Positions 9,408-26,523 of a stretch of 64,000 nt of DNA are shown piece by piece. A model generated the notes under the pieces. It had not been told where the DNA came from. It did not search any database and worked only from the letters and a program-made list of their open reading frames with translations. The DNA is from Thermoanaerobaculia bacterium (GTDB lineage: Bacteria; Acidobacteriota; Thermoanaerobaculia; Gp7-AA8). The DNA is taken from the NCBI GenBank assembly GCA_038244815.1, contig JBBRTB010000011.1:37050-101049 (forward strand), given 5' to 3'. Numbering within the stretch: position 1 is the first letter of the stretch; each line of letters opens with the position of its first letter. Both the position numbers and the translations under genes were made by a program.

Positions 9408-9414
9408 CCTTGTC

Positions 9415-9517
9415 GGGTGCTGGGTGCTGGGTGCTGGGTGCTGGGTGCTGGGTTGGTCGATACGACCGAGCACCGAGCACCGAGCACCGAGCACCCAGCA
9501 CCGAGCACCGAGCACCC
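9415..9517. repeat. Inverted heptamer arrays between divergent genes
   Basis: (GGGTGCT)5, central GGTCG-ATA-CGACC, then (CCGAGCA/CCCAGCA)7. Confidence 0.95.
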
Positions 9518-9520
9518 GTC

Positions 9521-10393: not shown

Positions 10394-10442
10394 CGGGAAT
10401 GAAGCATCGGACTGTGATATTTACACGCCTGCTTGCGAGCAA

Positions 10443-10518
<76 letters not shown>

Positions 10519-10604
10519 CTCAACCTCTTCCAGAATCTCTTCCGAACAGGCCATGAGGTTGACGACCGGATTGAGGTCGAGGCTCGCCAGGACCCGTTCC
10601 CGAA

Positions 10605-10830
10605 TCACGGGAACGATTCGTCCATGCAGCGCGAGTAGCGCCGTCCATGCTGCCGCTCGCGCCGGATTGCCTCGAGGGCAGTCTCCCGGTTCATTCCCTG
10701 CACCGCCATGTAGAGCTGCAGGTCTCGCTCCCCAAGCTCAAAGGCAAGGGCGACGCGTTGTCCCCGGCGTCATCCGCAGGACCTCTTCGGTCTGCTCCTG
10801 GCGTAGCTGCTCGGCGAGCTTCGATGGCAT
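10605..10830 (-). pseudogene. Small helical protein gene with an apparent 1-nt frameshift
   Basis: MPSKLAEQLRQEQTEEVLRMTPG / QRVALAFELGERDLQLYMAVQGMNRETALEAIRRERQHGRRYSRCMDESFP*; removing one base from the C4 run at 10762-10765 restores the frame; TATAAC upstream. Confidence 0.6.
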
Positions 10831-10908
10831 GATTACGAGTTATAGCCGTCCTGTGCGGGACGATGGATGACGCGTGCTCCTCGCGGTGCTCACCACCGCG
10901 AATTCGCG

Positions 10909-10937
10909 TTGACAAGGCACGCGATCCACTTCACACT
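10909..10937 (+). promoter_or_regulatory. Sigma70-type promoter upstream of the riboswitch
   Basis: TTGACA-N17-CACACT. Confidence 0.65.
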
Positions 10938-10962
10938 CCCCCCGCCGCCCACCAGCGGCGAC

Positions 10963-11098
10963 TTGCCGCCTAATCCTCGGCGCCGGGGAACGGGGGAACC
11001 AAAAGCGACGGCTTGCCACCGTCCGGGGTGAATCCAGCTGCAAGCTGGTAGGGCTTCCAGCCCAAACCCGACAGCTAACCTCGTAGGCAGCCTGGAAG
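10963..11098 (+). ncRNA. c-di-AMP (ydaO/yuaA) riboswitch
   Basis: Blocks AATCC..GGAACGGGGGAACCA..GGGGTGAATCC..GGTAGGG..CCCAAACCCGACAGCTAACCTCGTAGGC in the canonical order; loop TTCCA can pair with downstream TGGAA (pseudoknot). Confidence 0.92.
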
Positions 11099-11109
11099 GC
11101 AGGCCAGAT

Positions 11110-11146
11110 CAAACGCCGCGAAGCGATTCGCGGCGTTTGTCATTTT
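11110..11146 (+). terminator. Intrinsic terminator, likely the riboswitch expression platform
   Basis: CAAACGCCGCGAA-GCGA-TTCGCGGCGTTTG followed by TCATTTT. Confidence 0.8.
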
Positions 11147-11179
11147 GTCTCCGCCCGACCACAGCCACGTAACAACTGT

Positions 11180-11488
11180 GGAGATGCGCTGGCACGTCTC
11201 GGCCGCGCCGCGGAAGCGGAAGAGTCGCTGAAGAAGGAGATCGACCTCTTTCCGCGCGACCCCAAAGCGTACAAGAACCTCATCCTGCTTTACGCGACGG
11301 AGGGACGGAACGACGAAGCGACGAAGCTGGTGTTCCAGCTCGTCGAGAGGTCACCGGTTCCACCCTCGTACGTGGCGATCTCGACGACGCTCAAGGCCAT
11401 CGGCGACATCGACGGCGCGCGATACTGGGCGGCGCAGGGGCTGAGAAAGTTTCCGTACGACGCCGCCCTCCGCAGGATGGCGCTCTAG
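11180..11488 (+). pseudogene. 5'-truncated fragment of a sulfatase-TPR paralog (C-terminal TPR region)
   Basis: GDALARLGRAAEAEESLKKEIDLFP...TLKAIGDIDGARYWAAQGLRKFPYD aligns by eye with the C-terminus of 16002-18275; no in-frame ATG/GTG/TTG back to the stop at 11084. Confidence 0.8.
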
Positions 11489-11559
11489 AGACCCGGGTAC
11501 CCGAGCCGGCAATCTGGACCCTCCGTACCGCAACGCCCGTACTTCATCATTAACATTTA

Positions 11560-11732
11560 CGTGACAATTTTGTTGCGATACGCTACATATCCATCGTGGC
11601 GCGATCTCGCTTCAACCTGCGCAATTTGAATCGATTCGCGGAATCGAGGTGTCATGCCGTCCCATCGGTAACTGTGAACAGACTGTCACGCGATGCAAAA
11701 TGACGTAACTTGACCGTGACGTATTCGTCACG
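11560..11732. promoter_or_regulatory. Three related 18-bp palindromic operator-like sites
   Basis: CGTGACAATTTTGTTGCG (11560), TGTGAACAGACTGTCACG (11673), CGTGACGTATTCGTCACG (11715). Confidence 0.55.
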
Positions 11733-11785
11733 TTGCGGTAGCATTCCGAAACATTTCGGTCCCCCCCAAACAGAAAGGAGCGCCC

Positions 11786-14700
11786 ATGAAACAGTTTCCC
11801 TCCCTCGGGAAGTCAGCGGCTCTCGCCGCCTTACTCTGCACGCTGATCGTCGTCAGTGCTCAGGCCCAGTTCCAATCGGGGAACATCTACGGGAAAGTCC
11901 TGGGGAAAGATGGTGGAGTTCTCCCCGGCGTGACGGTCACGCTGACGGGAATCGGAGCGCCGCAGACCGCGGTGACCGACTCGCAGGGAGGCTTCCGCTT
12001 CATCAATCTCTCGCCGGGCAACTACGCACTGAAAGCGGAGCTGTCGGGATACGGCTCTGCGGTGCGCAACGGCATCGGCGTGCGGATCGCGCAGAACTCC
12101 GACGTGACGATGACGCTTTCGCCATCGGTCACCGAGTCCATCACCGTATCCGCTGAAGCACCGCTGCTCGACACGCGCAAGACCGGCACGGGCATCAACG
12201 TGACCAAGGTGGAGTTGCAGAACGTGCCGAGCGGCCGCGACCCGTGGGTCATCATGCAGCAGACCCCCGGCGTGTTGATCGATCGCATCAACGTCGGAGG
12301 CAGCGAATCCGGCCAGCAGTCCGGATACGTGTCGAAAGGCGCGACGAGCGACCAGTCTTCGTGGAACGTCGACGGCGTGTCGATCACGGACGTCGGCGCG
12401 CTGGGATCGACGCCCACGTACTACGACTTCGACTCGTTCGAAGAAATGCAGATCACGACGGGTGGTTCCGATCCGCGCATCAAGACACCCGGCGTGCAGA
12501 TGAACTTCGTCACGAAGCGCGGAACGAACGACTGGAAGGGTTCGGCGCGCTGGTTCCAGACGAACAGCGGATGGCAGGCCAAGCCGACGATTCCGGCGGA
12601 AGCGACGAGCTACCTGTCCGCGGTCAATCAGATCAACAGGATCGAAGACCGCGGGTTCGAGCTCGGCGGTCCGATCCTGAAAGACAGGCTGTGGTTCTGG
12701 GGCTCCTTGTCCAGGAACAACATCAACCTGCTTACGGCCACAAAGAACATCAGCGGCCAGCGCGCGTTCGATAAAACGCTGCTGGCAAACGAAAACATCA
12801 AGATCAACGCGCAGCCATTCTCCTCGAACAGTTTTGTCCTCACCGACATGTACGGCGACAAGGTCAAAATCGGGCGCAACGTCAGTCCGACGCGTCCGCC
12901 GGAGACCGCGTACAACCAGGCTGACGTTTACCGGAACAAGGAGACAGGGAGTCTCGCCAACCCTACAGTCTGGAAGGCTGAAGACACGCAGATCTTCGGC
13001 TCGAGTCTGTACCTGACGGGCATGTATTCGGAAGTCCAGGGCGGCTTCCATCTCGTGGGCGATGCCGGTGCCGGTTGCACGACCGCGGCATGCACTCTCG
13101 CCGGTCCCGTGGCGACCCTGGATCCGGCCGGCGTGTGGCATCGGAACTTTGTCGCCTATGAGAGCGTCCGTCCGTCCAGTCAGGCGCGGATCGACGGCTC
13201 GAAGTTCTTCGACATCGGTACGTCCAACAACGAGCTGAAGTTCGGCTTCGGCTATCGCAATGCCGGCGTCAATTCCGAGTCTGCCTGGGCGGGGAATCAG
13301 TACACGGTCATGTACGACGACCAGGGCAACGGTGGTGTGCAGTTAATGCGCTCACCCATCACGAATTTCCACTACGGCGTGAAGTATCAGGACGCCTACA
13401 TCGGAGACACGGTCCAACTGGGGAATCTCACGGTACAGGGATCGGTCCGTTACGATGCGCAGACGGGACGTGCCGACGCAGGTTCGCTCGGCGCCAATCC
13501 GATTATTCCGGAGCTCCTTCCCGCCGTTTCCTGGAATGCAATCAGTGGCCTGAAATGGACCAACATCTCGCCGCGCATCGGCCTCACGTACGCGCTCGGT
13601 GCCGCGAAGCGCACATTGCTGCGCGCCTCGTACAACCGCTACGCGGGGCAGCTTGGCGGCAGCGATGTGTACAAGGTGTCTCCGGGCTACTACAACTACG
13701 AGTACTTCTACTTCACCGACCTGAACGGCGATAGAGTCGCGCAGCGGAACGAAATCGACTTTGCCTCTGGCATCATCAGTTCCGGCGGCATCGATCCAAA
13801 CAATCCAACGGTTCCCCAGCAGTACTATCGCTGGGCAAAGGACTTCAAAGCTCCGACGACCGACGAGTTCATCGTCGGATTCGAGACCGAGCTGATGACG
13901 AACTTCACGGTGGGCGTGAATGGCACCTACCGGACCCTGAAGAACTTCAGTTGGACGATCGGCGAGCATCACCAGGGCCAGGGTGACGTTTACTCTCCGG
14001 CGGATTACGAGGCGGCGACACCGAAGACGACCACTCTGCCGAACGGGCAGACGGTGACGATCCCTTATTACGTACTGAAGTCAGGCGTCTCGTCGCCGAC
14101 GTTCTTCATCATCGAGGACCGGCCCGACTATCACCAGACGTACGATTCGATCGACCTGTTCGCGACGCGCCGGCTCACGGATCGCTGGATGATGCGCGGC
14201 AACTTCACGTTCCAGGACTGGAAGCAGCACATCGGTCCCGGCGCCATTGCCGATCCCAGTCAGTCGCGAGGCGCCTACGGCTGCACAACCTGCGACAACT
14301 CCGACGTGATCATCGGCTCAGGTACGGGCAGCGGCGCGAAAGGCGGCATCTACATCAACTCGAAGTGGGCCTACAACCTCACGGGCACATATCAGATCCC
14401 AGTGATTGAGACCAACTTCGGAGTCAACCTCGCCGGACGCCAGGGCTACCCGGTCCCGTATGTGTACCGGATCACGGGCAGTGGGAACAACGGTCAGTCG
14501 TCGTCGAATACGAAGTACCTCCTCGCCACGAGCGACATAACGCAGTTCCGTAATCCGGCGACCACTGAGCTCGACCTGCGTCTGGCGAAGGACATTCGTG
14601 TCTATCGCGGCGGTGCACTCACGCTGTCGATCGACATGTTCAATGTCCTGGACAATCGGACGATCCTGCAGCGCAACGTGGCCCGGTTGAACAACAACAA

Positions 14701-14788
14701 TGCCGGCGGTACTTTTGCCTCCAGCAACAACATCACCGAACTGCAGTCGCCGCGTGTGTTCCGTCTCGGTGCGCGGTTCACGTACTAG
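11786..14788 (+). CDS. Oar-like TonB-dependent receptor with carboxypeptidase-regulatory-like N-domain
   Basis: AAGGAG RBS, signal peptide, LPGVTVTLTG..GNYALKAELSGY, plug motif DSFEEMQITTGG..VTKRGTN, C-terminal PRVFRLGARFTY. Confidence 0.92.
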   Translation: MKQFPSLGKSAALAALLCTLIVVSAQAQFQSGNIYGKVLGKDGGVLPGVTVTLTGIGAPQTAVTDSQGGFRFINLSPGNYALKAELSGYGSAVRNGIGVRIAQNSDVTMTLSPSVTESITVSAEAPLLDTRKTGTGINVTKVELQNVPSGRDPWVIMQQTPGVLIDRINVGGSESGQQSGYVSKGATSDQSSWNVDGVSITDVGALGSTPTYYDFDSFEEMQITTGGSDPRIKTPGVQMNFVTKRGTNDWKGSARWFQTNSGWQAKPTIPAEATSYLSAVNQINRIEDRGFELGGPILKDRLWFWGSLSRNNINLLTATKNISGQRAFDKTLLANENIKINAQPFSSNSFVLTDMYGDKVKIGRNVSPTRPPETAYNQADVYRNKETGSLANPTVWKAEDTQIFGSSLYLTGMYSEVQGGFHLVGDAGAGCTTAACTLAGPVATLDPAGVWHRNFVAYESVRPSSQARIDGSKFFDIGTSNNELKFGFGYRNAGVNSESAWAGNQYTVMYDDQGNGGVQLMRSPITNFHYGVKYQDAYIGDTVQLGNLTVQGSVRYDAQTGRADAGSLGANPIIPELLPAVSWNAISGLKWTNISPRIGLTYALGAAKRTLLRASYNRYAGQLGGSDVYKVSPGYYNYEYFYFTDLNGDRVAQRNEIDFASGIISSGGIDPNNPTVPQQYYRWAKDFKAPTTDEFIVGFETELMTNFTVGVNGTYRTLKNFSWTIGEHHQGQGDVYSPADYEAATPKTTTLPNGQTVTIPYYVLKSGVSSPTFFIIEDRPDYHQTYDSIDLFATRRLTDRWMMRGNFTFQDWKQHIGPGAIADPSQSRGAYGCTTCDNSDVIIGSGTGSGAKGGIYINSKWAYNLTGTYQIPVIETNFGVNLAGRQGYPVPYVYRITGSGNNGQSSSNTKYLLATSDITQFRNPATTELDLRLAKDIRVYRGGALTLSIDMFNVLDNRTILQRNVARLNNNNAGGTFASSNNITELQSPRVFRLGARFTY

Positions 14789-14813
14789 TCGCTCGTACTT
14801 TGTGAGTGTTTCT

Positions 14814-14846
14814 ACCCGCTGGGGCGCTGCCCCAGCGGGTTTTTTG
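14814..14846 (+). terminator. Intrinsic terminator
   Basis: ACCCGCTGGGGC-GCT-GCCCCAGCGGGT followed by a T run. Confidence 0.9.
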
Positions 14847-14904
14847 TTCCCGGTGGCTGGGGAACAGGCCGTGATGTCATACCGTTCGGGTAACGAGATT
14901 CCAA

Positions 14905-16005
14905 GTGGAGGCTCCATTGCGCAGATTCGCTGTCGTTGCATTCACGTTGCTGTCATCGCTCGTCGCGATTTCTGCCGGCGCGCAGATCCGTGGTACGGGC
15001 CGCCTGCAGGGAAACGTCTTCGATAAGAACACCGGCAAACCGGTCGCTGGAGCAACGGTCTCGATCACGACGCCGGAAAGCGGCACGCGGCCGATCGTCG
15101 CGAAGACTGACGCAAGAGGACATTGGGCAGCGCTCGGCATGACGTCAGGTCAGTGGAACATTGATGTCAGTGCGCCTGGATACGGGACGAGCCGCGGGAC
15201 GGCAATGGTCAGCGAAGTCACCACGCCCCCGCCGATCAAAATCGAGCTCGACCCCGAAGTGAAGGAGGCTGCGCCGGCCGAGGTGGCGCCGGCCAGTCCC
15301 AGCGTGCCGAAGGAAGCAGTCGATGCGATCAAAGAGGGCCAGGAGCTGCTGCGAGTCAAAGCGGGCGACGTCGTCACCAACACGCAGGCCACGTCACCTG
15401 GAAGCACGACCGCGGTGTCGCACACTGCCACCGCCGATGAAGTCAAGGACAACGCGAAGCGCGCCGTCGCCGATCTCGAGAAGGCTTTTCCGATGATTCC
15501 AGATACAACGCCTGAGCTCCGCGACGTCCGAAACCAGGTCCTGGCCGTCCTCGCTCAGGCGTACTACAAAGCCGGTGCTCTCGAGGACGCGATCGCCACT
15601 CTGGAGAAGCTCGATGCGCTCGATCCTCCGACGGCGACGCCGGACGCGGCACACGCGACGCGCGACGTTCTTCTCGCGAACCTGTATCTCGAGAACGCAC
15701 AGCTCGATGAGGGCAAGGCGCTGCTCGAGAAACTTCCTGAGACCGCGATCAGCGATCCGACCGCGTACGTCAACATCGGCATTCTGTTTCTGAACAAGAA
15801 GGACCCGAACACCGCCACGAAGTACTTCACGAAAGCGATCCAGATGAACGGCAAGCAAGCCGAGAGCTACTACTATCGCGGTCTGGCCGAGGTGCAGATG
15901 AACAAGTACGGGGCGGCGAAAGCGGACTTTCAGCAAGTCCTCGCGCTGTCGCCCGACTCATCGGAAGCGCGTGACGCGAAGCAGATGCTCGCCAGCCTGA
16001 AATGA
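14905..16005 (+). CDS. Exported protein: carboxypeptidase-regulatory-like domain plus TPR repeats
   Basis: Signal peptide; GKPVAGATV..GQWNIDVSAPGY; TPRs AYVNIG, SYYYRGLA..AKADFQQVLALSP. Confidence 0.85.
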   Translation: MEAPLRRFAVVAFTLLSSLVAISAGAQIRGTGRLQGNVFDKNTGKPVAGATVSITTPESGTRPIVAKTDARGHWAALGMTSGQWNIDVSAPGYGTSRGTAMVSEVTTPPPIKIELDPEVKEAAPAEVAPASPSVPKEAVDAIKEGQELLRVKAGDVVTNTQATSPGSTTAVSHTATADEVKDNAKRAVADLEKAFPMIPDTTPELRDVRNQVLAVLAQAYYKAGALEDAIATLEKLDALDPPTATPDAAHATRDVLLANLYLENAQLDEGKALLEKLPETAISDPTAYVNIGILFLNKKDPNTATKYFTKAIQMNGKQAESYYYRGLAEVQMNKYGAAKADFQQVLALSPDSSEARDAKQMLASLK

Positions 16006-18275
16006 ATCCCGATGGTCATTCCGAGCCGCGAAGACGGCCAGGAATCTGGGCGGGGGTGGCGCCCCACCACCCAGATTCCTCGCGCTCTGCGGCGCTCGGA
16101 ATGACGGTCGTATTGACCGTCATCTTTTCGCTCACGGCCTGCCACAAGCTCAGCGCCCCGTCGCGCACGACCCCCGTCGTGTTGATCTCGATCGACACGT
16201 TGCGATCGGATCACCTTCCGGCGTACGGCTACAAAGGCGTGGCCACGCCGAACATCGACCGCCTGCGCGCAGATTCGATTCTCTACCGCCGCGCGTACAG
16301 CCACATTCCACTGACGTTGCCATCGCATTCGTCGATCCTGACCGGCATGCTTCCGAACGACAACGGAGTGCGCGACAACGTCGGCTTCCGCCTTTCCGAT
16401 TCGATTCCGACGCTGCCGGAGCTGCTCGAGAAGAATGGATATGTGACCGGAGGCGCAGTCTCGGCGTTCGTTCTTCGACGCGAGACTGGAATCGCGCGCG
16501 GCTTCGACTTCTTCGACGACGAAGTGGAGCCCCTCGGCAACTCAGATGAGACCGCGATCGGGCGGGTCCAGCGCAACGGCCGCGAAACACTGCATGTCCT
16601 CGAGAAATGGCTCGATGGAAATTCGCAGAAACCGTTCTTCGCGTTTCTCCACCTGTACGAACCGCACACGCCCTACACACCGCCCGAGCCGTATCTGAGC
16701 CGTTATCGCAACCGGTACGACGGCGAGATCGCTTTCGCCGATGCCATCGTCGGCGAGTTTCTCGATTACCTGAAGCAGCACGACCTTTACGACAAAGCGC
16801 TGATCGTTCTGCTCTCCGACCATGGCGAAGGCCTGAACGATCACGGCGAACAGGAGCACGGAATCTTCCTCTACCGCGAGGCGCTGCAGGTTCCCCTGAT
16901 TTTGAAGTTGCCGAAGAACGCAAAGGCCGGCACGACGGTCGATTGGCCGGTGCAGCTGGTCGACGTCTTTCCGACAATCGCGGAGCGGACGGCCACCCCG
17001 CTGCCGAGTGATCGACGGCGTACGGGAGAATCACTCCTCGCTGTCGGCAAAGATCGACCGCAGCGCCTGATCTACTCCGAGACGTTTTATCCGAAGTTCC
17101 ATTTCGGATGGAGCGATCTGCATTCGTTGATCGCCGGGAACGATCACTACATCCGCGCTCCGCAGCCGGAGCTGTACGATCTCGCCGCCGATCCGGCTGA
17201 GAAGCACAACGGCATCGAGCAGAACCGCCGTGCGTATGTCCGCCTGCGTCAGGCCATCGAGCCGTTCGTGCGTGAGGCGCCGGCGCCGTCCAGCATCGAT
17301 TCGGAAGACGCCGCAAAGCTCGCTGCTCTTGGGTATGTCGGTTCAACCGTGTCGGTTCCCGCCGGAACGGTGCTGCCGGACCCGAAAACGACGAGCGGAA
17401 CATTTCAGAAGATTCGTCTTGCCTTCACCTGGTACCGGAACGGAAAAGAGGACGACGCGCTCCGGCTCACAGATCAGCTTCTCGCCGGCAATTCGCAGAT
17501 CACTGACCTCTGGGACCTGAAATACAAAATCCTCGTCAAGATGGACCGAAAGCGGGAAGCGGTCGATGCGGCGAAGGAGGGTCTGCGGAAAGTACCCACG
17601 GCACTGGCCCTGCTGCACGACGTCGCTACCGGCGCGCTGGAGCTCGGCGATCTCGACACCGCACAGCAGCACGCCGAACTGGCGTTGAAACTCGAGCCCG
17701 GCAAAGCGCACGACATTCTGTCGCACATCTGGCTGCAGCGCGGAAACCTCGACCGCGCCGAAGCGGAAGCAAAGTTGTCGCTGGAGACGTCGCACGATCC
17801 GACCAGTGCTCTCATGCAGCTCGCCAATGCGGAAAAGGATCGCGGGAATCTGCAGGCGGCACTCGCCTATATCGATCGTGCGGTCGACATTTCCAGGCGC
17901 AAACGAGCTCCAGCGCAGGACCTCCACTTCGCTCGCGGCGATATCCTCGCGCGCCTCCAAAGAAACGCGGAGGCGGAGCAGGAGTTTCGTGCGGAAATCG
18001 AACACTATCCGTCGTCCGCCACCGCTTATTCTTCGCTGATCCTGCTGCTGGCCTCGACCGGCCGGTCGAACGAGGCGACGCCTCTGGTTTATGCGCTGAT
18101 CAAGGCATCGCCGGGGCCGCGTGCATACGTCGTCGTGTCGGAGACGCTGAAGGCTGTGGGCGACAACCAGGGCGCGGTGTATTGGGCGTATCAGGGTCTC
18201 GAGCGCTATCCGAAGGATCCTGAACTTCGCGGATTACCGAAAAAGCTTTCGCGGCCACTGCGCAGCAGCGGGTGA
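16002..18275 (+). CDS. Sulfatase-like / alkaline-phosphatase-superfamily hydrolase with C-terminal TPRs, possible lipoprotein
   Basis: ISIDTLRSD, TPNID, TLPSHSSILTG, HLYEPHTPY, YDGEI, SDHGE, ELYDL..DP.E; LTAC lipobox-like. Start is ATG 16002 (ATGA overlap) or ATG 16101. Confidence 0.9.
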   Translation: MNPDGHSEPRRRPGIWAGVAPHHPDSSRSAALGMTVVLTVIFSLTACHKLSAPSRTTPVVLISIDTLRSDHLPAYGYKGVATPNIDRLRADSILYRRAYSHIPLTLPSHSSILTGMLPNDNGVRDNVGFRLSDSIPTLPELLEKNGYVTGGAVSAFVLRRETGIARGFDFFDDEVEPLGNSDETAIGRVQRNGRETLHVLEKWLDGNSQKPFFAFLHLYEPHTPYTPPEPYLSRYRNRYDGEIAFADAIVGEFLDYLKQHDLYDKALIVLLSDHGEGLNDHGEQEHGIFLYREALQVPLILKLPKNAKAGTTVDWPVQLVDVFPTIAERTATPLPSDRRRTGESLLAVGKDRPQRLIYSETFYPKFHFGWSDLHSLIAGNDHYIRAPQPELYDLAADPAEKHNGIEQNRRAYVRLRQAIEPFVREAPAPSSIDSEDAAKLAALGYVGSTVSVPAGTVLPDPKTTSGTFQKIRLAFTWYRNGKEDDALRLTDQLLAGNSQITDLWDLKYKILVKMDRKREAVDAAKEGLRKVPTALALLHDVATGALELGDLDTAQQHAELALKLEPGKAHDILSHIWLQRGNLDRAEAEAKLSLETSHDPTSALMQLANAEKDRGNLQAALAYIDRAVDISRRKRAPAQDLHFARGDILARLQRNAEAEQEFRAEIEHYPSSATAYSSLILLLASTGRSNEATPLVYALIKASPGPRAYVVVSETLKAVGDNQGAVYWAYQGLERYPKDPELRGLPKKLSRPLRSSG
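16015..16105. repeat. Palindromic GTCATTCCGAGC...GCTCGGAATGAC element
   Basis: 12-bp terminal inverted repeats and inner GGAATCTGGG/CCCAGATTCC arms. Confidence 0.8.
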
Positions 18276-18285
18276 TAGACTTCGG

Positions 18286-18354
18286 GCTTCTGTGGAGGCG
18301 CGGGCTTCAGCCCGCGCACTCACGTCGGGCTGAAGCCCGCCTCTACACAGAAGC
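18286..18354. repeat. REP doublet (GTGG/GTAG family)
   Basis: GTGGAGGCGCGGGCTTCAGCCCGCG ... CGGGCTGAAGCCCGCCTCTACAC. Confidence 0.85.
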
Positions 18355-18368
18355 ATGCCGGAGGCACC

Positions 18369-20408
18369 GTGCATAGACTTGTCGCGGGCGTAGTCGCAGG
18401 ACTCATCGCACTCTCGCTGACCGCGCAGGTTCCTCGTGCAAGCGAGAACATTCAGGTCACGCTCGTCGAGGTGCCGGTCAACGTCGTCGATCGGAACGGC
18501 GCCCCTGTCCGCAATCTGACTGCCCGGAATTTCGAGCTGATCGACAACGGTCAACGTCGCGACATCACGCACTTCGACGCCATCGACCTTTCCGCCGGCG
18601 CGAAAATCGATCGCCGCGTCCTGGCCGCAGTCGCGGCCCGCAATTTTCTTCTTGTGTTCGACTTGAGCAACTCGCAGCCCGGTACGCTGGCTCGCGCCAG
18701 AGACGCCGCGCGTACGTTCGTGAAGAGTGCGGCGATGGAAGTCGATCGCATCGGCGTCGCGAACTTCTCGAGCGAGACGGGCTTTCAACTCCTGACGTCG
18801 TTCACGACCGACCGGCAGCTCGTCTCGGCGGCAATCACGACGCTCGGTCTTCCGAAGTATTTCCGCCCTGCCGATCCGCTCCTCATGACGGCGACCGAGA
18901 TGCACGAAGATGCGGACCTCGCTGAAGGCAGCTCACATCCAAACGATCAGATCTTCGCCGAAGTGGCGCGTCTGCAGGCCAGGACTCTGGACCGCGCAGC
19001 CAACGATGTGCAACGGCAGTTCATCAGCAGAACGCTCGATGGCTACGCGGAGCTGGCGCATGTTCTCGATCGCGTTGCCGGCCGCAAGCAGGTCATCGTG
19101 CTGACTGAAGGTTTCGACGCGAAGTTGATCCACGGCCGCGAGTCGCTCACTGGCGAGCAATTCCGCGACGAGCAGCGCATGATCGAAGCCGGTGAAGTCT
19201 GGCGCGTCGATAACGACAACCGGTACGGCGATTCGCACACCGCGGATGAGCTGAAGGGAATGATCGAGGTGTGCCGCCGCGCCGACGTCGTCATGCACGC
19301 GATCGACATTCGCGGCATCCGGGTCACGGGCAGCGACGTTCGCGATCTCGGGCCGAAGTCGAATGAGTCGCTGTTCCTTCTGACTCACGACACGGGCGGC
19401 ATGGTGTTCAAGAACGCGAACAGTCTCGAGGAAGACTTCCGCCGGCTCCTGCGAGCCGAGGAAGTCGTGTACATCCTCGGATTTGAAGCGCCGTCGAAGG
19501 ACCCGGGAAAGTTTCACGAGTTGAAGGTGAAGCTCGTCGACGTCACCTCAGGGCACGCGTTCCACCGCGCCGGCTACTTCGAGTCCACACCGCCGATGTC
19601 GCCGGTCGAGCGCACGCTGACCGCGGCAGAGATCATCTCGAACCAGATTCCGCAGACCGACATCATCGTTCACGCGGTGGCGACGCCGTTCCCACGCGGT
19701 GATGGAAACGCCCAGGTTCCGGTGATCGTCGAGATCGACGGGCCATCGATGCTCCGCTCCGCAAAGGCGAATCAGATCCAGAGCGAAGTGTTCATTTACG
19801 CGTTCGATGATCACAATCGGGTCCGCGATTTCGTGTATCAACCGCTCAGGCTCGATGTGAACAAGCTTCGCGATCGATTGCAACAGCACGGCGTACGCCT
19901 GTATGAAACGCTCATGCTTCCGGTGGGTCATTACTCCGTGCGCACGCTGGTTCGCGCCGGCGACCGGTCGCTGTACGGATACAGCGGCATCAACGTCGAC
20001 GTGCCTGAGTACGACCAGCTGGCCATGCTCGGAGGAACAGCCGTCGATGAGCAGCCTGGCGACTGGGTGCCGGTGAAGCCGCCCGATCGCAACGGCGTGC
20101 CGCGCGAATATCCGTTCACGATCGATGGGGCGATGCTCGTGCCGTCCGCTTCGCCGGTGCTGCGCCCGGGAGTTTCCGCTCGTGTCGCTCTGTACATCGG
20201 CCACATGACCGCGGCGCCTGCGAGCGTCGCCGGGACTGTCGACGGCCGCGAAGCGAGGGTGATGATTGCCTCGCGCTCGACGGCAGGAGGAACGGCGAAG
20301 CTGCTGCTCGACATCGTGCCGCCTGCGCTGCCTCCCGGTGATTATCAGTTGACGCTGCAGGTCCCGGAGCTTGTGCAAAACGTGGCCGTGCCATTCATCG
20401 TGCGCTAA
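18369..20408 (+). CDS. Acidobacterial-type VWA domain protein, copy 1
   Basis: Signal peptide; VEVPVNVVDRNGAPVRNLTARNFEL; FDLSNS (DxSxS); GRKQVIVLTEGF; LTHDTGG. Confidence 0.88.
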   Translation: MHRLVAGVVAGLIALSLTAQVPRASENIQVTLVEVPVNVVDRNGAPVRNLTARNFELIDNGQRRDITHFDAIDLSAGAKIDRRVLAAVAARNFLLVFDLSNSQPGTLARARDAARTFVKSAAMEVDRIGVANFSSETGFQLLTSFTTDRQLVSAAITTLGLPKYFRPADPLLMTATEMHEDADLAEGSSHPNDQIFAEVARLQARTLDRAANDVQRQFISRTLDGYAELAHVLDRVAGRKQVIVLTEGFDAKLIHGRESLTGEQFRDEQRMIEAGEVWRVDNDNRYGDSHTADELKGMIEVCRRADVVMHAIDIRGIRVTGSDVRDLGPKSNESLFLLTHDTGGMVFKNANSLEEDFRRLLRAEEVVYILGFEAPSKDPGKFHELKVKLVDVTSGHAFHRAGYFESTPPMSPVERTLTAAEIISNQIPQTDIIVHAVATPFPRGDGNAQVPVIVEIDGPSMLRSAKANQIQSEVFIYAFDDHNRVRDFVYQPLRLDVNKLRDRLQQHGVRLYETLMLPVGHYSVRTLVRAGDRSLYGYSGINVDVPEYDQLAMLGGTAVDEQPGDWVPVKPPDRNGVPREYPFTIDGAMLVPSASPVLRPGVSARVALYIGHMTAAPASVAGTVDGREARVMIASRSTAGGTAKLLLDIVPPALPPGDYQLTLQVPELVQNVAVPFIVR

Positions 20409-20475
20409 AAATAAAACGGTCGGGGACAGGGAGGGTGCGCGTTTCTGGCCACAGCGCCAGCACAAGTGACAGAAT

Positions 20476-22536
20476 ATGCGCGTGCAGAACCGACTGGCGA
20501 TCCTCGCCCTGATTGTCGTCTTCGCTTTGCCTGCCCGCACGCAGGCTCCTGCCGCCGGAGAACAAATCCAGGTCACACTCGTCGAGGTTCCCGTCAACGT
20601 CGTCGACCGCAACGGCGACGCGGTTCGCAATCTCAAACTCGAGAACTTCCAGCTGTTCGACAACGGTCAGCGCCGCAACATCACGCATTTCGACATGCTC
20701 GATCTGTCGACGGGCGCCAGCCGCGAGGCCGCCGGCCCGGCCGCCGCCGCAGCGAGCCGCAACTTTCTCCTGCTGTTCGATCTCAACAGCACCGAGCCGA
20801 ACACGCTCGCTCGCGCCCAAAAGGCCGCGCACAACTTCGTGAATGGCGCCGGCGTCAACGGCGATCGGATCGGCGTCGGCACGTTCAGCGTCCAATCCGG
20901 ATTTCATCTGCTGGCGGCGTTCACGACCGATGCAAAACTCGTGTCCGCCGCGATCGACACGCTTGGCGCGCCGAAACTGTATCAGCCCGTCGATCCGCTG
21001 CTGCTGTCGTCTGTCGAGATGCACAGAGAAGCCGAAGCCATGTTGATGAACGGCGGCAAAAATGCAGGGGCGATCGCCGAGCAACTTCACGAGAACGCAC
21101 GAGCACTCGATCGCGCGTCAAACGATATCCAGCGACAGTTCATCACCCGCACTCTGGCCGGCTACGGCGATCTGGCGCATCTTCTCGATCGTGTGCCCGG
21201 TCGAAAGCAGATCGTCCTGCTCAGCGAAGGCTTCGATGCAAAGTTGCTGCACGGCCGCGAATCGCTCACGAATGAACAGGCACGCGATGAACAGCAACAG
21301 ATCGAACGCGGCGAAGTCTGGCGCGTCGACAACGACAACCGTTACGGCAACTCACAATCCGCGAGCGATCTACGCGGGATGACGGAAATCTTCCGTCGCT
21401 CTGACGTCGTGCTGCATGCGATCGACATCAAAGGAGTCCGCGGCCTGGGCGACATCGCATCAGGCACCGCACCAGGGTCGAACGAGTCGCTGTTCCTGAT
21501 GACGCACGACACCGGCGGAATGGTTTTCAAGAACGCGAACAATCTCGACGAAGACTTCCACAATCTCCTTCGCGCCCAGGAAATCGTCTACGTGCTCGGC
21601 TTCGAGACTTCCTCGATCGCGCCGGGCAAGTTCCACGCGCTCACGGTCAAGCTCGTCGATGTTCCCTCCGCGCGTCCGATGTCTCGCGCCGGCTACTTCG
21701 AATCGACTCCGGCGACGACTCCGCTCGAGCGTACGCTGACTGCCGCCGAGATCATGGTCAATCAATTGCCGCAGAGCGGCATCGGTGTGCACTCGCTGGC
21801 GATGCCGTTTCCTCGGTCGGACGGACGAGCCCAGGTGCCGGTGATCGTCGAGATCGATGGCAAGTCGCTCATTCGCGTGGCTCGTGACAACAGGATTCAA
21901 AGTGAAGTGTTCATCTACGCGTTCGACGAGCACGACACCATTGTCGACTTCGTACACCAGCCAGTCGCGCTCGACGTCAACAAGCTCCGCGATCGCCTGC
22001 AACAACACGGCATTCGCATCTACGAGACGCTGATGCTGCCGCCCGCACGGTATTCGGTACGCACCCTCGTTCGCGCCGGAGCGGAGCCGATCTATGGTTA
22101 CAACGTCACCACGATCGATGTCCCTGCCTACGATCAGGCCGCGGTGCTTGGCGGTTCGGTCATCGACGATCGGCCGGGGGAATGGGTCCCCGTCAAGCCG
22201 CCCGATCGGCAGGGCGTCCCACACGAGTACCCGTTTGCGATCGATGGCGCGATGCTTGTGCCGTTCGCCGGTCCGGTGCTGCATCCCGGCGTTGCCTCAC
22301 GCATAGGACTCTACGTCGCGCGTCCAGCGTCGAACAAATTGAGCGTTGTCGGCGACATCGCCGGCCGCCAGACACCGGTTACAGTTGCCACGCGATCCAT
22401 GGCACCCGACGGCTCGGCGAAGCTGTTGCTCGACTTCACGCCGCCCTCACTTCCGCCCGGCGATTACGTTCTGACGTTGCACGTCGGTGAGGCAGGGACG
22501 AAGAACGTTACGACCGTGCCGTTCGCCGTGCGCTGA
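20476..22536 (+). CDS. Acidobacterial-type VWA domain protein, copy 2 (tandem paralog)
   Basis: Colinear with copy 1 (shared GEVWRVDNDNRYG, SNESLFL, WVPVKPPDR); FDLNST. Confidence 0.88.
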   Translation: MRVQNRLAILALIVVFALPARTQAPAAGEQIQVTLVEVPVNVVDRNGDAVRNLKLENFQLFDNGQRRNITHFDMLDLSTGASREAAGPAAAAASRNFLLLFDLNSTEPNTLARAQKAAHNFVNGAGVNGDRIGVGTFSVQSGFHLLAAFTTDAKLVSAAIDTLGAPKLYQPVDPLLLSSVEMHREAEAMLMNGGKNAGAIAEQLHENARALDRASNDIQRQFITRTLAGYGDLAHLLDRVPGRKQIVLLSEGFDAKLLHGRESLTNEQARDEQQQIERGEVWRVDNDNRYGNSQSASDLRGMTEIFRRSDVVLHAIDIKGVRGLGDIASGTAPGSNESLFLMTHDTGGMVFKNANNLDEDFHNLLRAQEIVYVLGFETSSIAPGKFHALTVKLVDVPSARPMSRAGYFESTPATTPLERTLTAAEIMVNQLPQSGIGVHSLAMPFPRSDGRAQVPVIVEIDGKSLIRVARDNRIQSEVFIYAFDEHDTIVDFVHQPVALDVNKLRDRLQQHGIRIYETLMLPPARYSVRTLVRAGAEPIYGYNVTTIDVPAYDQAAVLGGSVIDDRPGEWVPVKPPDRQGVPHEYPFAIDGAMLVPFAGPVLHPGVASRIGLYVARPASNKLSVVGDIAGRQTPVTVATRSMAPDGSAKLLLDFTPPSLPPGDYVLTLHVGEAGTKNVTTVPFAVR

Positions 22537-22563
22537 GAACGCCCGTTATACTTTTCGCAACAC

Positions 22564-23250
22564 GTGGATCTACCCGAATTCGAGCGGTGCATCGGCTATA
22601 CCTTCCAGCGGCGCGACCTGCTCACACGCGCGGTCACGCACAAGTCGTATTCGCACGAGGCCCGGCAGGGGGACGTCCGTCACAACGAGACGTTCGAATT
22701 CCTCGGCGACTCGGTGCTGGGCTTCGTGATCGGCGACATGCTGTTCCGCCACTTTCCCGAGCTCGATGAGGGCGCGCTTTCGAAGATGAAGGCCTACCTC
22801 GTCAGCGCCACGAGCCTGGCCGCGAAGGCCCGCCACTTCGGCATGGGCGACGTGATTCTGCTCGGCGTCGGTGAGGAGAAGACCGGCGGCCGCAGGAAAG
22901 ACTCGCTGCTCGCCAACCTCTACGAGGCCATGCTCGCGGCGATCTATCTCGACGGCGGCATCGACGCGGCCCGGCGTGTCATCGAGCAGTCTTTCCTCGC
23001 CGACATCCAGTCCATCGACGAGGAGGACCTGCTTTTCCAGGATTACAAGACGGCGCTACAGGAGCTCGCGCAGGGGAAGGGGTTCCCGCTGCCGGAATAC
23101 AACGTCATCGGTGAAGTCGGTCCCGACCACGACAAGACGTTCATCGTGGAGGTGCGCGTGGGCAGCCTGTCGACGCGCGGCGAGGGCTCTTCGAAGAAAG
23201 AGGCACAGCAGGAAGCGGCGAAGCGTGCGCTGGCAGAGTTCGCTGCTTAG
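22564..23250 (+). CDS. rnc: Ribonuclease III
   Basis: THKSY, NETFEFLGDSVL, EA..AAIYLDGG, DYKTALQE, GPDHDK.F, SKKEAQQ.AA. Confidence 0.96.
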   Translation: MDLPEFERCIGYTFQRRDLLTRAVTHKSYSHEARQGDVRHNETFEFLGDSVLGFVIGDMLFRHFPELDEGALSKMKAYLVSATSLAAKARHFGMGDVILLGVGEEKTGGRRKDSLLANLYEAMLAAIYLDGGIDAARRVIEQSFLADIQSIDEEDLLFQDYKTALQELAQGKGFPLPEYNVIGEVGPDHDKTFIVEVRVGSLSTRGEGSSKKEAQQEAAKRALAEFAA

Positions 23251-23298
23251 GCCTCGGATGGACGGGAACCGAGGCCCGAGGCCCGAGGCCCGAGGCCT
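23250..23298. repeat. Heptamer repeat
   Basis: GGCCTCGG ... (CCGAGGC)4. Confidence 0.85.
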
Positions 23299-23299
23299 G

Positions 23300-24421
23300 G
23301 TGATTGTGATGATCGCGGCTGCCGCAACCATGCTCCTTCTGGCCCAGGCGCCTGCTCCCGCCAGCAACGAGGATCTGGATCGCATCCGCGGCGAGATCGC
23401 CAGGCTCAGGCAGCGTCTCGACGTCGTCCACCGCCAGGCCACGAACATCCGCGAGGAGCTCGAGGCTGCGGATCTCGAGCTGGACATCCACTCGCGCGAG
23501 CTGGAGATCGCCACCCAGACCAGGCAGCGCGTCGACGTCGAGCGCGCCAACGACGAAGCGCAGATCGCCGAACTGACCGTCAGGATTACCTTGCAGAAGC
23601 AGCATCTGCGCAAGCGTCTGGTGGCGCTCTATCAGCTCGGGGGGCTGAGCTATCTGCGCATCCTGATGTCGCTCGACCAGCGGCACGACCCGAGAGCGGC
23701 GATCTCGATGCTCAGCTTTCTCGTCACCCACGACTCGCGCATGATCACGCGGTTCCAGACCACCAGGCGCCAACTCGACCTGGAGAAGATCGCGCTGGCC
23801 AAGCGGCAGCAGGAGCTGGCCGCGCTGGCCCGGGTGATCGAGGAGCGCCGGCGCGCCGTCGCGGCGTCCTACGCGGAGAAAGAGCGCGTCCTGGCCGAGC
23901 TCGAGAAGCAGGAGAGCGGATCGGCGCAGCAGCTCGCCGAGCTCGAGGAGAAGGCGCGACGGCTGCAGCGCCTGGTGGGCGTGCTTTCGGCGCAGGCGCC
24001 CACGATCGCCCCTTCCTCCGACGTCCGCACGTACCTCGGTGCGCTGGCCTGGCCCGTCGACGGCGAGGTCGTGGAGCGGTTTGGAAGGCAGCGTAACCCG
24101 AAGTTTTCAACCTATACGATGAACAACGGCCTCAAAATCGCGGCGGCCGCCCGCACCGAGGTGCGGGCGGTGTTTCAGGGAACAGTTCTCTTCTCGCAGT
24201 GGTTCAAAGGGTACGGTAACTTGATCATTCTCGACCACGGCAATCGCGTCTTCTCGCTCTACGGAAACATCGCCGGACCACTGGTTGCAGTCGGAGATCG
24301 GATCAGCACTGGTCAGCCGATTGCAGGCGTGGGCGAGGGCGAAGACGCGAACGGCGGCTACCTCTACTTCGAAATCCGGCAGGATAATCACCCCGAGGAT
24401 CCACAGAAATGGTTGCGTTGA
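23300..24421 (+). CDS. envC: EnvC-like murein hydrolase activator (coiled coil plus degenerate M23)
   Basis: Long coiled coil; WPVDG, GYGNLIILDHG..SLYGN, YLYFEIR with Zn ligands absent; start approximate. Confidence 0.8.
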   Translation: MIVMIAAAATMLLLAQAPAPASNEDLDRIRGEIARLRQRLDVVHRQATNIREELEAADLELDIHSRELEIATQTRQRVDVERANDEAQIAELTVRITLQKQHLRKRLVALYQLGGLSYLRILMSLDQRHDPRAAISMLSFLVTHDSRMITRFQTTRRQLDLEKIALAKRQQELAALARVIEERRRAVAASYAEKERVLAELEKQESGSAQQLAELEEKARRLQRLVGVLSAQAPTIAPSSDVRTYLGALAWPVDGEVVERFGRQRNPKFSTYTMNNGLKIAAAARTEVRAVFQGTVLFSQWFKGYGNLIILDHGNRVFSLYGNIAGPLVAVGDRISTGQPIAGVGEGEDANGGYLYFEIRQDNHPEDPQKWLR

Positions 24422-25617
24422 TGACGAAAAGAAAGATCGCCTTTGTCGCTGTTTCCAGCGCGCTGCTGGTGTTCCTCATCGGGGGCGCCGTCTTCGGGCA
24501 GGCCACGCAGAAGAACAACGTCTATCGATACCTGAGCATCTTTTCCGAGGTGTTCGATCTGGTTCGCAGCAACTACGTCGAGGACGTGTCGTCGGACAGG
24601 CTGATGGACGGCGCCTTCTCCGGCGTCACCGATGCGGTCGATGAATTCAGCTACTACGTTCCGCCGACACAGATGGCCACCTACAAGTCGTTCGTCGAGA
24701 ACGAGGACAACGGCATCGGACTCGTAGTCACGAAGCGCTTCGGTTACGCGTACGTGATCACTGCCATCGCTGATTCCCCCGGGGCGAAGGCGGGCATCGA
24801 GCGCGGCGACTTCATCGAGAAGATCGACGGCGCACCGACGCAGAAGATGGCCGTTTGGCAGATGCGTCAGGCGCTGCGTGCGAACAAGGCGATACACCTG
24901 CAGGTGTTGCGCGGTGGACAGACCCACCGCGACGAATTCACCATCCAGCCCGCGGCGTATCACCCCGTGCCGCTGGAGACGAATCATTACGGTGCGGTGG
25001 CCTACATCCGGATTCCCTACTTCGAAAAAGGAAGCGAGGGGCAATTCCGCTCCGCGCTCGAGAAGATCCGCAAGGACGGTGCGCGCAAGCTGATCGTCGA
25101 TCTGCGGGGCAACGCCGGCGGTGATGTCGACGAGGCGATCGCTTCCGCCGACGATCTGCTCGCCGGCGGTCTCATCACGTCGATCGAGGGGCGGAAAGTG
25201 GAGCCGAAGCGCTGGCAGGCCGATCGAGCCACCGTGTATGACGGTGACGTCGAGGTGCTGACCGATCCATCGACGGCGTCGGGCGCGGAGATCTTCGCCG
25301 CCGCCATTCGCGGCAACAACCGCGGCAAAGTCGTCGGCGTGACGACGTACGGCAAGTCGATCGTGCAGCGCTTCATCCCCCTGCCCAGCGGCGGCGGCGT
25401 CTACATGACCGTCGCGCATTACACGACACCGGACATGAAGCCGATCAAGGAAGCCGGTGTGCGTCCCGACGTCCTGGTGGACCTGACCTCTCTGGCGCTG
25501 CGCGATCCGAAAGACAAGAACTCGGCCGCAAAAGCGAACCAGCCTGATCTGATCCTCGAAAAGGCGCTGGCGTTGTTCGGAGAGCCCGCACCGGCGGCCG
25601 TGAAGAAAGCGGCGTAA
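24421..25617 (+). CDS. ctpA: S41 carboxy-terminal processing protease with PDZ domain
   Basis: DLRGNAGG, TASGAEIFA, TYGKSIVQ, YTTP, GVRPD. Confidence 0.9.
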   Translation: MTKRKIAFVAVSSALLVFLIGGAVFGQATQKNNVYRYLSIFSEVFDLVRSNYVEDVSSDRLMDGAFSGVTDAVDEFSYYVPPTQMATYKSFVENEDNGIGLVVTKRFGYAYVITAIADSPGAKAGIERGDFIEKIDGAPTQKMAVWQMRQALRANKAIHLQVLRGGQTHRDEFTIQPAAYHPVPLETNHYGAVAYIRIPYFEKGSEGQFRSALEKIRKDGARKLIVDLRGNAGGDVDEAIASADDLLAGGLITSIEGRKVEPKRWQADRATVYDGDVEVLTDPSTASGAEIFAAAIRGNNRGKVVGVTTYGKSIVQRFIPLPSGGGVYMTVAHYTTPDMKPIKEAGVRPDVLVDLTSLALRDPKDKNSAAKANQPDLILEKALALFGEPAPAAVKKAA

Positions 25618-25631
25618 AATCCAGCCAGCGA

Positions 25632-26522: not shown

Positions 26523-26523
26523 C

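Follow-up and report, generated by a model that had tools for sequence, protein, structure and literature searches.

What do five neighbouring envelope genes of an acidobacterium do together, and does the cyclic di-AMP (c-di-AMP) riboswitch upstream of them control them? The question is raised by the genes at 11786–22536 of a 64,000-nucleotide (nt) stretch of DNA from a Thermoanaerobaculia bacterium (assembly GCA_038244815.1, contig JBBRTB010000011.1, positions 37,050 to 101,049), which is called the window here. The genes encode an Oar-like TonB-dependent outer-membrane barrel, a protein joining a carboxypeptidase-regulatory-like domain (CarboxypepD_reg) to tetratricopeptide repeats (TPRs), a sulfatase-fold enzyme with a TPR tail, and two von Willebrand factor A (VWA) proteins. 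A preliminary description had read them as an undescribed envelope complex that handles a phospho- or sulfo-ester substrate and is possibly linked to c-di-AMP. The region holds one of the many copies of an acidobacterial envelope module, whose conserved core is the barrel and the sulfatase-TPR enzyme, with or without the CarboxypepD_reg-TPR protein.

The five open reading frames (ORFs) were confirmed on the + strand within 11786–22536 (MIDAS, metal-ion-dependent adhesion site):

11786..14788, + strand: Oar-like TonB-dependent outer-membrane barrel with N-terminal CarboxypepD_reg, 1000 amino acids (Pfam)
14905..16005, + strand: exported CarboxypepD_reg-linker-TPR protein, 366 amino acids (Pfam; 13-sequence family alignment)
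16002..18275, + strand: sulfatase-fold TPR lipoprotein with a predicted Thr nucleophile, 757 amino acids; likely true start at ATG 16101 (Pfam, NCBIfam)
18369..20408, + strand: VWA1, exported TIGR03436 protein, 679 amino acids, first MIDAS motif DLSNS intact (NCBIfam, AlphaFold2)
20476..22536, + strand: VWA2, paralog of VWA1, 686 amino acids, first MIDAS motif altered to DLNST (NCBIfam)

The gene content given in the preliminary description is borne out. The five genes are co-oriented and, on visual inspection of the translations, all carry export signals. The two VWA proteins, the barrel and the CarboxypepD_reg-TPR protein begin with hydrophobic signals that end in AQA, GAQ, TAQ or TQA. For the sulfatase-TPR protein, a start at the internal ATG 16101, which the N-termini of the enzyme relatives suggest, would give a lipobox-like LTAC. 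Two proteins contain CarboxypepD_reg and two contain TPRs (Pfam). In the barrel protein, CarboxypepD_reg (PF13620) scores 57.4 bits over residues 34–112 and OMP_b-brl_4 (PF25183) scores 78.7 bits against a cut-off of 30; no NCBIfam family matched this protein, and a sequence search of the PDB gave no barrel relative. By eye, the segment ESITVSA after the N-terminal domain looks TonB-box-like. In the 366-residue protein a low-complexity linker joins CarboxypepD_reg (45.6 bits) to the TPRs. The Pfam scan of the genes from 9398 to 27267 gave no match to SusD or to any glycoside hydrolase family, so the locus is not a classic polysaccharide utilization locus (PUL), as had been proposed. The system was also called undescribed, and in literature outside subscription journals no publication was found on the module or on a TonB receptor gene preceded by a c-di-AMP riboswitch. 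New here are the quantified pairing of paralogous barrels and enzymes in one genome, the finding that the VWA genes are guests, a riboswitch cassette with three contexts, and a deletion that uncouples the riboswitch from the module.

Recurrence of the barrel and enzyme core

When the genome was searched with the window proteins (tblastn), 10 sulfatase-TPR genes and 18 barrel matches were found. For eight of the 10 sulfatase-TPR genes an Oar-like barrel is no more than 3 kb away, compared with a mean of 0.35 and a maximum of 3 under random placement (2000 trials), and tight same-strand barrel-enzyme pairs are present on contigs C7 and C8. Acidobacterial genomes, one per species, were then scanned with an alignment of 11 enzyme sequences as query. 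The scan gave at least 647 matching stretches, at least 636 of which are confirmed enzyme relatives. The enzyme-anchored loci described here are the 78 among the matches listed, and every count of them refers to those matches; most carry the title Thermoanaerobaculia, and the others include Vicinamibacterales and Holophagae. Genomes may be shared between some of these loci and the other relatives used, and the relatives are not independent of each other.

In the 40 enzyme-anchored loci of at least 15 kb, a barrel was found in 31, a CarboxypepD_reg-TPR gene in 21, a second sulfatase-TPR gene in 25 and a VWA gene in 12. Over all 78 loci, the barrel was found in 46, the CarboxypepD_reg-TPR gene in 31 and a VWA gene in 14. 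The order is also kept: an enzyme gene comes immediately after the CarboxypepD_reg-TPR gene in 28 of the 31 loci with such a gene, and the order barrel, CarboxypepD_reg-TPR, enzyme is found in 15 of the 78. The barrel and the sulfatase-TPR gene, often with the CarboxypepD_reg-TPR gene, thus recur in the same genome, in the same family and across Acidobacteriota of soil and sediment. The co-occurrence suggested by the preliminary description therefore holds for this core, whereas the VWA pair is not constant.

The neighbours of the module were surveyed in 90 of the 184 flanking ORFs. The only repeats among these 90 were four FG-GAP/UnbV_ASPIC propellers (L067 and L076; L numbers denote compared loci), TPR-only proteins, one PMT_2-TPR glycosyltransferase and RNase III, and no glycoside hydrolase recurs among them. 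The FG-GAP_3 and UnbV_ASPIC propellers lie within other acidobacterial modules (L067 6672–8558 and 12067–14286; L076 5013–6992 and 6989–9970), and combined with VWA they make a domain pair like that of integrins. TPR-tailed membrane glycosyltransferases of the PMT_2/GT87-like kind are encoded on the opposite strand in the modules of L031 (7751–9820 and 14324–16144, both −) and L041 (7753–9786, −) and beside the module of L076 (13791–15989, −).

The two VWA proteins are full-length paralogs, as had been described. They match NCBIfam TIGR03436 (acidobact_VWFA) with 168.7 bits for VWA1 and 157.8 bits for VWA2 (cut-off 81.25) and are 62% identical from end to end (426/682); neither of them matched any Pfam family, VWA included, at E ≤ 0.01. 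The AlphaFold2 model of VWA1 (32-row alignment; mean predicted local distance difference test score (pLDDT) 79.5, predicted template modelling score 0.74) shows a small N-terminal beta-sandwich, a VWA fold, a long helical insert, and two to three C-terminal beta-sandwiches that are immunoglobulin (Ig)/MG-like. Foldseek matched it to the pilus-tip adhesins SpaC (6m3y), PitA (7w6b) and Mfa5 (6to1), to ANTXR2/TEM8 and to integrin I domains, with low whole-chain template modelling (TM) scores, as expected of a multi-domain query. Across 32 family members, the MIDAS pattern DxSxS...T...D retains the first Asp in 32, the first Ser in 17, the second Ser in 27 and the Thr (T146) in 30, and 31 have Glu where the last Asp is expected. 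Judged by the model, the VWA proteins look like adhesin-like exported binding proteins, and no feature links them mechanistically to the barrel.

Fourteen genes of the genome score over the TIGR03436 cut-off, and only VWA1 and VWA2 (2 of 14) are near a sulfatase-TPR gene; a third VWA gene of the window (37352–39010) adjoins unrelated genes. Because 12 of the 40 long loci hold a VWA gene and two of the 14 genome copies are near the enzyme, the VWA genes are occasional guests from a dispersed family and not general members of the module. A second tandem TIGR03436 pair is present on contig C50 (547–3302, −), at the start of a short contig on which no barrel or sulfatase-TPR match was found.

A sulfatase fold with threonine at the nucleophile position

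The enzyme scores as a sulfatase followed by a TPR region (Pfam Sulfatase, 153.2 bits), and its closest solved relative is a Ser-type choline sulfatase (7oz8, E 8.7e-30). Its catalytic motif is different. The enzyme has T-L-P-S-H where 7oz8 has S-T-P-A-R, and both T105 and H109 are invariant in the 11 aligned enzyme members, the more distant second paralog type included. D65, D273, H274, H222 and H286 are invariant in the same alignment, and the Asp and His positions of the metal ligands are kept (D65, D273, H274). In addition, Phosphodiest (PF01663) matches residues 59–127 with 54.8 bits, which covers the nucleophile segment.

Formylglycine sulfatases require Cys or Ser, and Arg, at the motif positions, and Thr is not known to be converted to formylglycine. 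A Thr nucleophile is a mark of the phosphoryl-transfer branches of the alkaline-phosphatase superfamily and is typical of the NPP/PafA branch. With Thr at the nucleophile position and His at the Arg position in 11 of 11 members, the enzyme cannot, as its predicted active site reads, be a formylglycine sulfatase, and a sulfoester substrate is unlikely. A phosphoester is the more likely substrate, because T105 and H109 are invariant and the Phosphodiest match runs across the nucleophile segment. Thus, of the two substrate classes named in the preliminary description, the phosphoester is favoured and the sulfoester is not.

The structure model gives a similar picture of the fold. Mean pLDDT of the AlphaFold2 model is 69.9, and the TPR region is confident. 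For the catalytic part the top Foldseek matches are S1 sulfatases (E about 2e-12, TM (target) 0.47–0.49), and for the C-terminal tail they are CTPR/OGT TPR superhelices. The enzyme also gave weak NCBIfam matches to EptA/MCR/LtaS/YejM (E 2e-8 to 5e-3). It is like the S1 sulfatases and phosphonate monoester hydrolases (7oz8, 9hh2, 6b0j, 2vqr), which are the best matches of its catalytic domain and share its metal ligands, but it differs from S1 sulfatases in the Thr nucleophile, the His in place of Arg, the added C-terminal TPR superhelix of about 290 residues and the lipoprotein-like N-terminus. It is like the NPP/PafA phosphodiesterases and phosphatases (PF01663) in its Thr-nucleophile segment, whereas the rest of the domain scores as a sulfatase fold and there is no full-length PF01663 match.

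The c-di-AMP riboswitch and the deletion behind it

The features outside the five genes that bear on their regulation and borders are as follows:

10443..10518, + strand: tRNA-Phe (GAA) (ARAGORN; Rfam tRNA, 72.3 bits)
10528..10900, no strand: extra DNA of about 373 nt with only degenerate short ORFs, absent from L023 (blastn, ORF list)
10909..10937, + strand: sigma-70-like riboswitch promoter, TTGACA, 17 nt, CACACT (eye reading)
10957..11104, + strand: c-di-AMP riboswitch aptamer, ydaO class (RF00379)
11110..11149, + strand: intrinsic terminator and riboswitch expression platform, a 13-pair hairpin (11110–11139) plus T-run
11180..11488, + strand: start-less 3' remnant of a paralogous sulfatase-TPR gene (homology, synteny)
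11572..11586, + strand: conserved element GTTGCGATACGCTAC upstream of the barrel gene, candidate promoter or operator
14814..14840, + strand: terminator-like hairpin behind the barrel gene, 12 pairs (10 G-C) and a T-run
22564..26522, + strand: right border, the rnc-envC-ctpA-yibQ block (Pfam, NCBIfam, locus maps)
22564..23250, + strand: rnc (RNase III), 28 nt past VWA2
within 22871..24421, + strand: envC-like M23 gene
24409..25617, + strand: ctpA
25632..26522, + strand: yibQ-like deacetylase

The riboswitch is genuine. It matches RF00379 with 79.4 bits (gathering score 38, E 8.2e-17) over the full model (1–134 of 134; Rfam), is present as a single copy in this 98%-complete genome, and the genome also has a gene with a diadenylate cyclase domain. 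The terminator hairpin AAACGCCGCG..CGCGGCGTTTG stands behind the aptamer in the window and in 27 of 27 related family loci, and its stem changes on both arms in L027, L033 and L044. In 21 of 28 loci the 75 nt before the riboswitch contain a promoter pattern, TTGACA..TAGACT/TACACT, compared with 23 of 5000 random 80-nt windows. The promoter-like elements were named by eye and by custom patterns; a generic promoter scan gave 0 sites in 10300–23000, where 2.2 were expected. Because the terminator is conserved and a promoter pattern of its own lies just upstream, the riboswitch is, as read from these elements, a compact self-contained unit of promoter, aptamer and terminator.

Among the 61 genomes searched (60 relatives and the source genome, with the unpublished genome G028 included in the counts), the riboswitch is present in 29: it was found in 27 of 36 same-family relatives and in only one genome outside the family. 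Twenty-eight riboswitch loci from genomes other than G028, 27 of the family and one outside, were compared by mapping the window proteins on them. The tRNA-Phe is the conserved left border (polyprenyl synthase, then tRNA) and is near the riboswitch in most related loci. An orthologous barrel follows the riboswitch at about 160–540 nt in 12 of the 27 related loci, which are of different genera, and a barrel follows in the window too; the orthologs in the 12 loci are 45–66% identical. What comes next there, where the contig continues, is a variable set of CarboxypepD_reg-TPR genes, one or two enzymes, more barrels and sometimes VWA genes. In the window and five of these 12 loci, the barrel set is followed in the same direction by the rnc-envC-ctpA block. 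Of the 78 enzyme-anchored loci, five hold the riboswitch, and all five have a barrel behind it.

Other targets were found in the remaining loci. In six of the 27 (L021, L037, L038, L040, L044 and L046) the riboswitch directly leads rnc-envC-ctpA-yibQ, and in L037 and L038 rnc starts about 25–35 nt past the terminator; RNase III is an unusual first gene behind a c-di-AMP riboswitch. In seven of the 27 the riboswitch is directed towards the convergent polyprenyl synthase gene, whose 3' end it faces, and rnc-envC is divergent on the other side. In these seven loci (L022, L027, L029, L030, L032, L039 and L042), read with the riboswitch on the + strand, it is at about 2500–2650 of each locus and has no downstream gene of its own, and it may give a regulated antisense RNA, a shared bidirectional terminator or a stand-alone RNA. 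Two of the 27 loci are too short or unclear to place. At L025, the sole locus outside the family, the riboswitch precedes kup (K_trans, 600 bits) and kdpA is divergent; this locus provides no outgroup for ordering the riboswitch contexts. A polyprenyl-synthase tree of 16 rows, in which two of 13 inner branches are well supported, is compatible with one origin per context type.

In the window, the distance from the riboswitch end to the barrel start is 680 nt, and a gene remnant followed by a spacer of about 300 nt lies in between. The remnant is identical at 53 of 100 residues to residues 646–745 of the intact sulfatase-TPR protein (E 2e-32). At window 11311–11430 it has 73.6% nt identity to the 3' end of the first enzyme gene of L023, a locus of the same genus, and 64.7% to the second enzyme gene. 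L023 is collinear with the window: 10300–10527 matches L023 2220–2444, which holds the polyprenyl synthase 3' end and the tRNA (blastn), and the riboswitch unit at 10901–11145 matches L023 2445–2689 (blastn). The synteny then skips about 5.1 kb of L023, comprising the first barrel and most of the first sulfatase-TPR gene, and resumes at the second barrel (window 11769 onwards). The junctions are bridged with 0 mismatches by public contigs covering 11116–12445 (X1) and 11071–11266 (X2); three public runs of one study were compared, and X1 may be the source sample. By the synteny with L023, the homology of the remnant and the bridging contigs, a deletion of about 5 kb removed a barrel and sulfatase-TPR pair that in the genus ancestor stood directly behind the riboswitch, and the module in the window is, by this alignment, the second barrel set of the genus. 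The extra DNA at 10528–10900 may be a decayed insertion at tRNA-Phe; one public contig joins 10521 to 10968.

The barrel gene has an upstream region of its own. The element GTTGCGATACGCTAC is identical at 14 of 15 bases at the matching place before the orthologous barrel of L023, and in other genera a TGnTAAGCT element and a shared leader stand before barrels both beside and away from the riboswitch. We argue that the barrel is probably its own transcription unit, since the remnant and the deletion stand behind the riboswitch and the upstream element of the barrel is conserved. Any effect of c-di-AMP here would need read-through past the terminator, the remnant and this element. The link to c-di-AMP made in the preliminary description is thus supported in one part, the adjacent riboswitch, and weakened in the other, since a self-contained unit is separated from the module by the remnant and the barrel's own upstream element. 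Because of the hairpin at 14814–14840, the five genes need not form one transcript; the terminator scan overall gave 16 sites, with 9.7 expected.

Further motifs were observed before the barrel gene. A Pho-box-like direct repeat, TGTGAACAGACTGTCAC, is at 11673–11689, about 110 nt before the barrel start, and a second one is at 11550–11566; both are among only 10 genome-wide matches to the loose pattern TGTNAN-N5-TGTNAN. No comparable Pho-box-like site was found before the phoU/pstB or porin/pstS genes, so there is no local Pho-box consensus for comparison. A palindrome, GTGACGTATTCGTCAC, is near 11716. The barrel leader of relatives consists of an inverted repeat, ATTCAA..(GGAAC)..TTGAAT, then GATCTGCA, and then a near-invariant start region, GAAAGGAGCCGCTATGAAACGGTG. 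It lies about 130–190 nt before the barrel starts in L024, L026, L028, L031, L033, L034, L035, L036, L041 and L047, and in L035 the inverted repeat shows a single compensatory change. From 11 sequences RNAalifold derived no consensus structure for the leader, and the leader motif was not found before the barrels of the source genome.

A proposed uptake module and its alternatives

Loci of the PUL and PUS type in Bacteroidota (SusC/SusD, PusCD; PMC8115612; bioRxiv 10.64898/2026.09.03.749221) are the closest known comparison. They resemble the module in a CarboxypepD_reg-type N-terminal TonB barrel clustered with exported lipoprotein hydrolases, in many divergent copies per genome, and in an alpha-helical-repeat lipoprotein partner encoded beside the barrel. 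In contrast, the module has no SusD/PusD homolog or glycoside hydrolase, its helical TPR part is fused to the enzyme, its barrel is Oar-type (PF25183) and not SusC-type, and a link to phosphate regulation was not seen. The barrel is like Oar of Myxococcus xanthus in combining CarboxypepD_reg, a candidate plug that scores under its Pfam cut-off and a large barrel; the likeness is one of architecture, and no PopC-like protease cargo is encoded here. Tandem VWA genes beside TPR proteins are also a feature of the Bat (aerotolerance) operons, but BatA/BatB are membrane-anchored, whereas VWA1 and VWA2 belong to TIGR03436, are secreted and have Ig-like tails, and no MoxR or DUF58 gene is nearby.

We propose, with a rough probability of 0.45, that the module is a PUL/PUS-like system for the capture, uptake and processing of a phosphoester-type substrate, because its copies are many and divergent, barrels are paired with hydrolases, and the enzyme chemistry points to phosphoesters. 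In this proposal, the TonB-energised barrel would import a phosphoester-bearing compound or polymer fragment, and the Thr-type lipoprotein enzymes would cleave the substrate either in the periplasm or on the cell surface. The enzymes may dock to partners through their TPRs, and the paralogous copies may serve different substrates. VWA or FG-GAP proteins, where present, could assist substrate capture. A complex prediction for sulfatase-TPR residues 48–757 and CarboxypepD_reg-TPR residues 176–366 scored 0.00 in both runs and is uninformative either way.

Several observations weigh against this proposal. The Plug domain (PF07715) of the barrel scores 18.5 bits, under the cut-off of 23.9, and the enzyme model has pLDDT below 50 at residues 102–105 and 355–465, around the active site. 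The scanned neighbours are heterogeneous (peptidases, FG-GAP/ASPIC propellers, TPR-only proteins, PMT_2-TPR glycosyltransferase), and the 90 of 184 flanking ORFs contain no recurrent gene for an inner-membrane transporter, the phosphate regulon or another phosphorus-related function. Oar itself is needed for protein export (PopC secretion) and not for import (PMC6434023). Finally, the riboswitch-barrel adjacency is kept in 12 loci of different genera, which could mean selection for c-di-AMP control and speaks against a loose coupling of the two.

The main rival is that c-di-AMP controls a machine for envelope remodelling or export, in the same cell-envelope regulon as rnc-envC-ctpA-yibQ. An envelope polymer or protein would then be exported by the barrel, or the enzymes would transfer or trim its phospho-groups. 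The requirement of Oar for PopC secretion just cited fits this rival, as do the PMT_2/GT87-TPR glycosyltransferases inside the module (L031, L041) or beside it (L076), the place of the module between the riboswitch and the envC-ctpA-yibQ wall genes on one strand, and the start of rnc 28 nt past VWA2. The Thr nucleophile with DHGE..HG also recalls phosphoethanolamine and phosphoglycerol transferases and LtaS, to which the weak NCBIfam matches point. However, the enzymes are lipoprotein-like and have no N-terminal membrane domain of the lipid-donor transferases, the barrel has its own upstream element, seven other sulfatase-TPR genes lie within 3 kb of a barrel while the one riboswitch of the genome is here, and many divergent copies per genome suit substrate diversification better than housekeeping. 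We consider this rival unlikely. A second possibility concerns regulation, namely that c-di-AMP gates the module, with low c-di-AMP giving read-through of the riboswitch terminator into the barrel and the following genes. The barrel next to the riboswitch in 12 of 27 related loci (at about 160–540 nt) and in all five riboswitch-holding enzyme-anchored loci, the common orientation of everything from the riboswitch through yibQ, and the diadenylate cyclase gene are consistent with such gating. It is nevertheless doubtful, since the 680 nt between the two here contain the remnant of a dead gene as well as the barrel's own conserved upstream element, barrels away from the riboswitch carry the same kind of element and leader, and the same cassette leads rnc-envC in six loci, faces a convergent gene in seven, and precedes the classical target kup outside the family.

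A related reading takes the riboswitch as a portable cassette before three targets, the barrel/Thr-phosphoesterase module, rnc-envC-ctpA-yibQ and a polyprenyl synthase antisense, with c-di-AMP gating TonB-dependent transport and phosphoester processing where the barrel is next; we hold this to be rather improbable. The ydaO regulon comprises cell-wall hydrolases and K+ and osmolyte transporters. The cassette resembles it in its full RF00379 aptamer and terminator and in leading rnc-envC(M23)-ctpA in relatives and kup in another family, and a TonB-dependent barrel as the first downstream gene is not known among c-di-AMP riboswitch targets. If the portable-cassette reading were true, a second messenger would be linked to an acidobacterial counterpart of SusCD-like uptake, with the enzyme TPR tail in the role of the SusD-like partner. 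That the genes are a chance juxtaposition of expanded paralog families with no shared function is highly unlikely and, for the core, contradicted by the data: the families are indeed multi-copy (18 barrel, 10 enzyme and 14 VWA matches in the genome), gene content between riboswitch and rnc differs from genome to genome and the VWA genes are mostly elsewhere, but barrel-enzyme proximity is 8 of 10 against a random mean of 0.35, and the gene order is kept in 15 of 78 loci and, for CarboxypepD_reg-TPR and enzyme, in 28 of 31. A locus for utilisation of sulfated glycans or sulfoesters with true sulfatases has almost no probability left. Although the best sequence and fold matches are S1 sulfatases (Pfam Sulfatase, 153 bits), it is contradicted by the active-site residues, with Thr at the formylglycine-precursor position and His at the motif Arg position in 11 of 11 members, and no glycoside hydrolase or SusD is encoded between 9398 and 27267.

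Few bacteria of soil and sediment are as abundant as the Acidobacteriota, and most of their Oar-like barrels and "sulfatases" have no assigned role. Reading these enzymes as phosphoester-type would correct a widespread "sulfatase" annotation error, and the proposed uptake module points to a testable route for the uptake and processing of phosphoester-bearing matter. One module copy behind a c-di-AMP sensor in many genera could also serve as a handle on messenger control of outer-membrane transport.

Two further ORFs of the window were noted. A 1170-amino-acid ORF at 32521–36033 (−) matches no Pfam family at E ≤ 1e-5. The ORF at 6186–9515 (−) encodes a 1109-amino-acid protein with a methyl-accepting chemotaxis signalling domain (154.9 bits) and a C-terminal SBP_bac_5 domain (264 bits), and this protein is conserved beside the polyprenyl synthase gene in relatives with 57–76% identity.

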